In this document: positions 4,352 to 6,689 of the stretch, piece by piece
Layout of the letters: each line of letters begins with the position of its first letter
Position numbering within the stretch: position 1 is the first letter of the stretch
Virus record (IMG/VR): IMGVR_UViG_2585427754_000003
Source of the DNA: a virus
Taxonomy: Duplodnaviria > Heunggongvirae > Uroviricota > Caudoviricetes
Length of the DNA: 18,155 nucleotides
Reading direction: 5' to 3' (one strand)
Notes under the pieces: model-generated
Databases searched by the model: none
What the model was told of the DNA's origin: nothing
What the model saw: only the letters and a program-made list of their open reading frames with translations
Translations under genes and position numbers: made by a program

Positions 4352-6689
4352 TCTCCCGCATATTGCCAGTATGGCCTTTAATGAGCCGCTGATGCTTGAA
4401 CCCGCCTATGCGCGGGTTTTCTTTTGTGCGCTTGCAGGCCAGCTGGGGATCAGCCGCCTGACGGATGCGGTGTCCGGTGACAGCCTGACTGCCGGAGAGG
4501 CACCCGCGACGCTGGCGTTATCCGGTAATGATGACGGGCCACGACAGGCCCGCAGTTATCAGGTCATGAACGGCATCGCCGTGCTGCCGGTGTCCGGCAC
4601 GCTGGTCAGCCGGACGCGGGCGCTGCAGCCGTACTCGGGGATGACCGGTTACAACGGCATTATCGCCCGTCTGCAACAGGCTGCCAGCGACCCGATGGTG
4701 GACGGCATTCTGCTCGATATGGACACGCCAGGCGGAATGGTGGCGGGGGCATTTGACTGCGCTGACATCATCGCCCGTGTGCGAGACATAAAACCGGTAT
4801 GGGCGCTGGCCAACGACATGAACTGCAGTGCAGGTCAGCTGCTTGCCAGTGCCGCCTCCCGGCGTCTGGTCACGCAGACCGCCCGGACAGGCTCCATCGG
4901 CGTCATGATGGCTCACAGTAATTACGGTGCTGCCCTGGAGAAACAGGGGGTGGAAATCACGCTGATTTACAGCGGCAGCCATAAGGTGGATGGCAATCCC
5001 TACAGCCATCTTCCGGATGACGTCCGGGAGACACTGCAGTCCCGGATGGACGCAACCCGCCAGATGTTTGCGCAGAAGGTGTCGGCATATACCGGCCTGT
5101 CTGTGCAGGCTGTGCTGGATACCGAGGCTGCAGTGTACAGCGGTCAGGAGGCCATTGATGTCGGACTGGCTGATGAACTTGTTAACAGCACCGATGCGAT
5201 CACCGTCATGCGTGATGCACTGGATGCGCGTAAATCCCGTCTCTCAGGAGGGCGAATGACCAAAGAGACTCAATCAACAACTGTTTCAGCCACTGCTTCG
5301 CAGACTGACGTTACTGACGTGGTGCCAGCGACGGAGGGCGAAAACGCCAGCGCGGCGCAGCCGGACGTGAACGCGCAGATCACCGCTGCGGTTGCGGCAG
5401 AAAACAGCCGCATTATGGGGATCCTCAACTGTGAGGAGGCTCACGGACGCGAAGAACAGGCCCGCGTGCTGGCAGAACCCCCCGGTATGACCGTGGAAAC
5501 GGCCCGCCGCATTCTGGCAGCTGCACCACAGAGTGCACAGGCGCGCAGTGACACTGCGCTGGATCGTCTGATGCAGGGGGCACCGGCACCGCTGGCTGCA
5601 GGTAACCCGGCATCCTTCATCACTAAAGGCCGCCTGTGCGGCTTTTTTTTACGGGATTTTTTTATGTCGATGTACACAACCGCCCAGCTGCTGGCGGCAA
5701 ATGAGAAGAAATTTAAGTTTGATCCGCTGTTTCTGCGTCTCTTTTTCCGTGAGAGCTATCCCTTCACCACGGAGAAAGTCTATCTCTCACAAATTCCGGG
5801 ACTGGTAAACATGGCGCTGTACGTTTCGCCGATTGTTTCCGGTGAGGTTATCCGCTCCCGTGGCGGCTCCACCTCTGAATTTACACCGGGATATGTCAAG
5901 CCGAAGCATGAGGTGAATCCGCAGATGACCCTGCGTCGCCTGCCGGATGAAGATCCGCAGAATCTGGCGGACCCGGCTTACCGCCGCCGTCGCATCATCA
6001 TGCAGAACATGCGAGACGAAGAGCTGGCCATTGCTCAGGTCGAAGAGATGCAGGCAGTTTCTGCTGTGCTTAAGGGCAAATACACCATGACCGGTGAAGC
6101 CTTCGATCCGGTTGAGGTGGATATGGGCCGCAGTGCGGCGAACAACATCACACAGTCCGGTGGTACGGAGTGGAGCAAGCGTGACAAGTCCACGTATGAC
6201 CCGACCGACGATATCGAAGCCTATGCGCTGAACGCCAGCGGAGTGGTGAATATCATCGTGTTTGATCCGAAAGGCTGGGCGCTGTTCCGTTCCTTCAAAG
6301 CCGTCAAGGAGAAGCTGGATACCCGTCGCGGCTCTAATTCCGAGCTGGAGACAGCGGTAAAAGACCTGGGCGAAGCGGTGTCCTATAAGGGGATGTATGG
6401 CGATACGGCGATCGTCGTGTATTCCGGACAGTACGTGGAAAACGACGTCAAAAAGAACTTCCTTCCGGACAACACGATGGTGCTGGGGAACACTCAGGCA
6501 CGCGGTCTGCGCACCTATGGCTGCATTCAGGATGCGGACGCACAGCGCGAAGGTATTAACGCCTCTGCCCGCTACCCGAAAAACTGGGTGACTACCGGCG
6601 ATCCGGCGCGTGAGTTCACCATGATTCAGTCAGCACCGCTGATGCTGCTGGCTGACCCTGATGCGTTCGTGTCCGTACAACTGGCGTAA
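4332..6689 (+). CDS. C: Prohead protease/scaffold C-Nu3 fused in frame to major capsid protein E (D gene deleted); ~785 codons from the C start
   Basis: C starts at GTG 4332 ([16 protein letters not shown]...) behind SD ggagg at 4321-4325. The frame runs without a stop through the normal C/Nu3 C-terminal region (...AAGNPAS), then a 16-codon linker FITKGRLCGFFLRDFF read from former intergenic sequence, then the E ATG at 5664 and on to the E stop at 6689. The in-frame Nu3 start ATG is at 5046. The track ORF 4197..6689 is the same frame extended upstream into B. Confidence 0.75.
5625..5650 (+). promoter_or_regulatory. Terminator-like GC hairpin plus T-run immediately upstream of the E start, now inside the fusion reading frame
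   Basis: aaaggccgc ctgt gcggc followed by tttttttt: stem gccgc/gcggc (5629-5633 and 5638-5642), loop ctgt, then a T8 run (5643-5650). Confidence 0.45.
5664..6689 (+). CDS. E: Major capsid protein E (341 aa); also forms the C-terminal part of the C-Nu3-E fusion frame
   Basis: MSMYTTAQLLAANEKKFKFDPLFLRLFFRESYPF...DAFVSVQLA, 341 codons from ATG 5664, matching lambda gpE in length and almost all of its sequence. Confidence 0.9.
   Translation: MSMYTTAQLLAANEKKFKFDPLFLRLFFRESYPFTTEKVYLSQIPGLVNMALYVSPIVSGEVIRSRGGSTSEFTPGYVKPKHEVNPQMTLRRLPDEDPQNLADPAYRRRRIIMQNMRDEELAIAQVEEMQAVSAVLKGKYTMTGEAFDPVEVDMGRSAANNITQSGGTEWSKRDKSTYDPTDDIEAYALNASGVVNIIVFDPKGWALFRSFKAVKEKLDTRRGSNSELETAVKDLGEAVSYKGMYGDTAIVVYSGQYVENDVKKNFLPDNTMVLGNTQARGLRTYGCIQDADAQREGINASARYPKNWVTTGDPAREFTMIQSAPLMLLADPDAFVSVQLA

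Follow-up and report, generated by a model that had tools for sequence, protein, structure and literature searches.

The window analysed here is a stretch of 18,155 bp (IMG/VR record IMGVR_UViG_2585427754_000003) that makes up the entire draft contig JORP01000097.1 of assembly GCA_000713265.1, from Escherichia coli 6-537-08_S3_C1, a strain for which we found no describing publication in the literature. Its late genes are those of lambda, A to J, at 97-99% identity, and this report concerns the part of the head-gene cluster between C/Nu3 and E, where the gene D for the decoration protein gpD is missing. On the plus strand, codons 1-428 of C, the S49 prohead protease, occupy 4332..5615 with a GTG start (428 of 439 residues aligned, 98.8% identity, Peptidase_S49 match), while codons 1-190 of Nu3, the scaffold, begin in the same frame at an internal ATG at position 5046 (start codon checked). 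The retained D-E spacer is translated as a 16-codon linker, FITKGRLCGFFLRDFF (5616..5663, plus strand), and is followed on the same strand by the complete gene E for the major capsid protein of 341 amino acids (5664..6689), in which 341/341 residues equal those of E. coli M8 E and which matches Phage_cap_E with an E-value of 1.7e-70.

BLAST against lambda NC_001416 aligned window 595-5614 with lambda 681-5700 at 98.6% identity and window 5614-6800 with lambda 6086-7271 at 96.8%. The missing segment is 386 bp and corresponds to lambda nt 5701-6086 (or 5700-6085), with the deletion junction at 5614..5615 on the plus strand; a single C common to both flanks, the only microhomology (1 nt), leaves the breakpoint ambiguous at window 5614. 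Across the junction ...GGTAACCCGGCATC is directly followed by CTTCATCACTAAAGGCCGCCTGTGCGGCTTTTTTTTACGGGATTTTTTTATG, as an earlier first-pass annotation of this DNA had described. The break falls in the third position of C codon 428 and turns TCT into TCC, so that Ser is kept. Lost are C/Nu3 codons 429-439 (DAVNDLLNTPV) with the stop codon, the C-D spacer, the whole of D (110 codons and stop) and 6-7 nt past the D stop, and both C and Nu3 thereby lack their last 11 residues. In a D-bearing reference no direct repeat 386 nt apart was found at the breakpoints, and a repeat-mediated mechanism was rejected on this ground.

The first-pass annotation had proposed a clean deletion of D between C/Nu3 and E with its junction at about 5614/5615, a deletion that took D entire, a few bp past it and, from C/Nu3, the stop and approximately the last 11 codons. 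The alignment with lambda confirms each of these points. Its figure of about 385 bp needs a small correction, the deletion being 386 bp and the net difference 385 only relative to references with seven T in a run upstream of E where the window has eight. It had also found no open reading frame (ORF) for a gpD-like protein, in agreement with our tblastn search, in which gpD of the close relative E. coli M8 gave no match in the window (best E-value = 0.32), and with the gene calls on the contig, which include no decoration gene D (Pfam HDPD, PF02924) between C and E.

A further statement, that the C/Nu3 frame passes into the sequence preceding E, also holds, and what had gone unmentioned is that this frame stays open into E itself: it runs through the 49-nt D-E spacer and on to the end of the complete E gene (ORF 4197/4332-6689). 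The predicted C(1-428)-linker-E ORF (4332..6689, plus strand) encodes 785 amino acids (84.8 kDa), and nested within it on the same strand a predicted Nu3(1-190)-linker-E ORF (5046-6689) encodes 547 amino acids (59.7 kDa). The longer product has been deposited as KEM68416.1 under the name 'clp protease family protein', an annotation to be corrected to a deletion-generated C-E fusion. Exactly this product is on record once and forms a cluster of one among approximately 15 billion proteins. Pfam reads it as two separate domains, Peptidase_S49 and Phage_cap_E, and NCBIfam holds no fusion-family model for the 785-residue product, the only models touched being of the SppA/SohB peptidase type, all below their cut-offs.

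The open frame depends on a run of T at 5643-5650, which counts eight in the window and seven in lambda and most relatives; with seven T the C frame would end after 491 amino acids, with no fusion to E. In IMG/VR the 8-T allele is present in five contigs, all with D, and the 7-T allele in >120. The difference would be a homopolymer polymorphism, or else a recurrent sequencing error. Because D-bearing prophages carry the 8-T allele too, it probably predates the deletion; a private second mutation was considered and is not the likeliest reading, given that five D-bearing contigs share the allele. The simplest reading would be that a 386-bp deletion arose in an 8-T ancestor and was in frame by chance, for which the prior is one in three. 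Gene E retains its own ATG (5664) together with 49 nt of native upstream sequence, so translation starting there may still yield free gpE, the product of E. RNA folding placed a terminator-like hairpin in the D-E spacer at 5625-5646, with a 9-pair stem followed by Ts (z = -1.8, a weak signal), which a consensus promoter/terminator scan of 5300-5900 did not flag.

All relatives examined carry D. The C-E interval is larger by 385 bp in 80/80 matching phage records, and among the matches listed (30 phage records) 20 have a head-decoration gene under the match while 10 are without annotated features. A decoration gene lies between C and E in the best 40 of 3,180 matching complete E. coli genomes, and the two flanks are 386-387 nt apart in all 73 related loci (73/73) that have both of them. 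The exact portal protein of the window is found on many contigs, all with D; in 10/10 contigs with an identical portal protein we found Nu1 (181 amino acids), C (439), D (110, HDPD) and E (341). The junction itself appears only here. A 24-mer across it was absent from genome, viral and metagenome contig collections in an exact scan, and a 44-mer centred on it, which is unable to seed a megablast match in a D-bearing genome, found no match among 5,426 complete genomes of E. coli and 50,697 phage records. A sibling isolate or second assembly that would confirm the deletion was sought through the exact fusion and tape-measure proteins, and both were found only on this contig.

The first-pass annotation had noted that its proposal would fall if the closest relatives naturally lacked D, that is, if the window belonged to a lambda-like lineage with no decoration gene at this position. 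We reject this explanation, and the chance that it is right seems to us close to nil: D is present in every relative examined, contigs that share the exact portal protein included, the junction is unique, and the break falls within the coding sequence of C/Nu3, whose conserved C-terminus is gone. Since D is present in all close relatives, the comparison indicates that its loss is a derived, private allele.

The same note had named an assembly error at the junction as the other thing that would overturn it. Such an artefact, in which the isolate has an intact C-D-E segment and the contig lost 386 bp, or in which the T-run was miscounted and no in-frame fusion exists, would find some backing in the nature of the record: one 18-kb draft contig lying between repeats (an insertion sequence, IS, and J), with no second assembly or sibling isolate having the same proteins, no Logan source for the fusion protein, and a minority T-run allele (5 IMG/VR contigs against the >120 with seven T). 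We nevertheless rate it as unlikely. The junction shares 1 nt only, and with no direct repeat at a 386-nt spacing the breakpoints offer a k-mer or overlap assembler nothing on which to collapse; similar deletions in other strains recur in independent assemblies (see below); and the 8-T allele is also that of five D-bearing contigs.

Nu3 is the scaffold and C the protease of the lambda head pathway, and the C-terminus is common to both (PMC3224144). In C/Nu3 homologues of 75-93% identity the C-terminal DLLNTPV is invariant or nearly so, and the linker upstream of it is highly variable. As the deleted tail holds DLLNTPV, its loss has probably impaired the function of both C and Nu3. Expanded heads are stabilised by the decoration protein gpD, which the phage can do without only when its genome is at least 18% shorter than wild type (PMC12656833).

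A second lesion lies at the left end of the window. Positions 1..598 (plus strand) are the right end of ISEc12, of the IS21 family, with the 3' part of istB at 1-513 (Pfam IstB_IS21) and the terminus ...GGTAATACGCA at 598. Over these 598 nt the window is 99.7% identical to the annotated ISEc12 of E. coli G6/7 and ends at the same base (...ACGCA); in G6/7 the element sits in lom, not in nu1. Next to it, at 599..650 on the plus strand, is a 3' remnant of nu1, the gene for the small terminase subunit, comprising approximately its last 17 codons, the IS having inserted after about codon 165. Homology to lambda and to the compared sequence L131 begins directly past the IS end, window 595 being lambda 681 and lambda nu1 extending over 191-736. 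Neither the complete E. coli genomes nor the viral and genome contig collections contained the ISEc12-nu1 junction, and relatives sharing it, which were sought in order to place the two lesions in time, were not found.

The contig begins inside ISEc12, and the left junction, any remainder of nu1 and any cos site would fall outside the window. Where a lambda module has an intact Nu1 and cos upstream of A, the window has the approximately 17 C-terminal nu1 codons and no cos. The nu1/cos loss claimed earlier is in fact an insertion of ISEc12 in nu1; as the contig opens within the element, cos and the 5' part of nu1 may lie on its far side.

These features also bear on whether D was deleted on purpose, as in a lambda display or packaging strain, D-deficient lambda derivatives being in use for display (PMC12656833). 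The source is however named as the E. coli isolate 6-537-08_S3_C1, the junction bears neither scar nor linker nor marker, the deletion cuts into C/Nu3, and the backbone differs from laboratory lambda by 1.4-3.2% and has ISEc12 in nu1. We regard engineering as extremely improbable.

The remainder of the late region follows the lambda plan. Gene calls and Pfam matches give the order A, W, B, the C-E ORF, FI, FII, Z, U, V, G, T, H, M, L, K, I and J, and from 595 to 18155 the window is collinear with E. coli prophages in their thousands except for a single gap of 385 bp. By synteny and identity (98.6% and 96.8% at the nucleotide level to the left and right of the junction, respectively) the head module is of the lambda type. 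In tblastn with E. coli M8 proteins as queries, A, W, B, E, FI, FII, Z, U, V and T were full length with 97-100% amino acid identity. Upstream of C, and also supported by Pfam, A (625-2550, 99.4% to E. coli M8), W (2547-2753, 100%) and B, the portal gene (2750-4351, 98.7%), are intact on the plus strand with full-length matches. Downstream, FI, FII, Z, U, V, G, T, H, M, L, K and I lie within 6731-18155 on the same strand and are intact according to gene calls and Pfam, supplemented by tblastn for FI to T. The tail chaperone gene G (9237-9659) is full length with 85.7% protein identity to the E. coli M8 copy, and its neighbours are much closer to that strain (V 97.6%, T 99.3%); on sequence grounds the G region looks like a mosaic patch. 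A G/T slippery heptamer, GGGAAAG, is located at window 9635. Gene J (plus strand; gene calls and Pfam) begins at 15032 and is cut off by the end of the contig at 18155. That the contig break at the right end of the window (15032-18155) falls within J suggests that the 3' part of J is repeated elsewhere in the genome, for example in another lambdoid prophage able to supply functions in trans. Scanned against Rfam at the gathering threshold, the window gave 0 matches.

The window is not alone among E. coli prophages in having a deletion that joins C to E. Searching with the fusion protein as query returned, among 1,051 homologues, only a few unrelated singleton fusions; other singleton ORFs in E. 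coli that combine S49 with Phage_cap_E are P0002 (746 amino acids), P0004/P0005 (573), P0008 (485) and P0009 (473). These stem from independent in-frame deletions that remove D but are larger (approximately 0.5-1 kb or more) and cut into E; among the C-E fusing deletions found, only that of the window leaves E whole and nearly all of C/Nu3. At the DNA level the P0004 junction has 4 nt of microhomology, and at the P0002 junction the breakpoints share an imperfect match of approximately 11 nt. Some of these deletions were confirmed in independent NCBI and Logan assemblies. The P0002 allele occurs in three samples (L140-L142) with two different downstream states, and so appears to have been inherited for some time. 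The prophages hosting these fusions are damaged in other places as well, with a truncated A, an FI-J fusion that removes tail genes, or a Z-fibre fusion. Judged from these sequences, sporadic internal deletions here appear to be a recurring form of prophage decay.

The search also brought up proteins of other kinds. P0003 (743 amino acids, E. coli) is a C protease with an internal tandem duplication of approximately 300 residues, the repeat running from ...ARSYQVMNG onward. P0016, P0019-P0021, P0031 and P0034, which form separate clusters from mostly Logan and ENA assemblies, are portal-C fusions of exactly 966 amino acids; the overlap of B and C is 20 nt, and a 1-nt indel or a gene-calling quirk could make such fusions.

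Taken together, we consider it likely that a spontaneous deletion by illegitimate recombination (386 bp, 1 nt of microhomology) took D and the 3' end of C/Nu3 in a lambda-like prophage. Recombination at the 1-nt microhomology would have deleted 386 bp of the head-gene cluster, and the in-frame C-E and Nu3-E fusions would be a by-product of one-in-three chance, not selected. The prophage would presumably be unable to make infectious particles unaided, as it would be without a functional small terminase, a decoration protein for full heads, and a free native scaffold or protease. That the remaining late genes examined are full length suggests that the damage is recent. No close relative shares the D deletion, the C/Nu3 truncation or nu1::ISEc12, each of which is private to this contig, and all three bear out the earlier description of a degraded prophage. 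That description had offered, as its other half, a prophage yielding D-independent particles only; with nu1 broken as well, such particles would need a helper phage, and no infectious particles are expected without one. The whole looks like ordinary prophage decay and not a new system.

Several points weigh against this account. The in-frame status hangs on one homopolymer count (8 T). The evidence comes from a single draft contig with no independent replicate, and the exact tape-measure and fusion proteins are known from here alone. The 5' part of nu1 and cos might lie beyond the IS, and another prophage might supply D and Nu1 in trans. Finally, full-length copies of the other late genes examined fit recent decay, and would also fit a prophage under some selection.

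Selection could have acted on the rearrangement itself if the Nu3-E (and C-E) fusion were functional as a scaffold-capsid protein like those of HK97 and T5 and gave D-independent capsids, for instance in a helper-dependent or transducing element. The frame is indeed open over the junction, with a complete E and almost the whole of Nu3 retained; the topology is that of HK97 and T5, with the scaffold N-terminal to the capsid protein (PMC10275583); a Nu3-E interaction has been reported from yeast two-hybrid work (PMC3224144); and the remaining late genes examined are all intact. We still hold such a role to be very unlikely, for the allele is a singleton with no sign of spread or inheritance, an in-frame outcome has a prior of one in three, the invariant C-terminal motif of Nu3/C is lost and nu1 is disrupted in the same element, and the other C-E fusions cut E and reside in plainly decaying prophages. 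A bolder form of the idea, that the deletion made by accident an HK97/T5-like scaffold-fused capsid protein that still assembles shells without gpD, has in our view only a slim chance of being correct; if true, it would show, in nature, a single-step passage between the two scaffold architectures that tailed phages have. Under decay following an illegitimate deletion, the reading we prefer, the finding matters little alone and adds one more decay route, a short illegitimate deletion together with an IS insertion. What is left is a curiosity: one 386-bp deletion suffices to set the lambda scaffold in frame upstream of the capsid protein, as in HK97/T5.

Compared with known systems, the window is closest to the lambda head cluster Nu1-A-W-B-C/Nu3-D-E-FI-FII (NC_001416) and its E. 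coli prophage relatives, with the same gene order and 96.8-98.6% nucleotide identity over A to FI. It differs from lambda in lacking nt 5701-6086 and with them D, in the truncation of C/Nu3 and its fusion to E, in the interruption of nu1 by ISEc12, and in having eight T, not seven, in the run upstream of E. Like laboratory D-defective lambda phages (Dam15, D-deletion display vectors), whose heads are stable only with a genome at least 18% shorter than wild type (PMC12656833), it has no gpD; in those phages, however, C, Nu3 and E are separate and intact and the terminase is kept, whereas the window has lost the C/Nu3 tail and carries these genes in fused form, with nu1 broken.

In HK97, with the delta domain of gp5, and in T5, the scaffold is N-terminal to the HK97-fold capsid protein in one polypeptide, which forces a 1:1 ratio (PMC10275583). 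The Nu3-linker-E ORF of the window (5046-6689) resembles these in being open with the scaffold N-terminal to the capsid, provided that the 8-T count is right. Unlike them, the fusion stems from a private deletion and is conserved in no lineage, its long form includes the protease, and its parts are lambda Nu3 and E and not delta-domain homologues; by this comparison, the Nu3-E ORF does not appear to be a member of the HK97/T5-type scaffold-fused capsid proteins. The lambda proteins X1/X2 are post-translational covalent C-E products reported from the head pathway and called controversial (PMC3224144). They have been proposed to form from separate gene products within the prohead, whereas the C-E join of the window is genetic and comes from a deletion. 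Comparable joins are the fusions P0002, P0004/P0005, P0008 and P0009, each of which, like that of the window, is a rare-allele in-frame S49-Phage_cap_E ORF created by a deletion that removed D.

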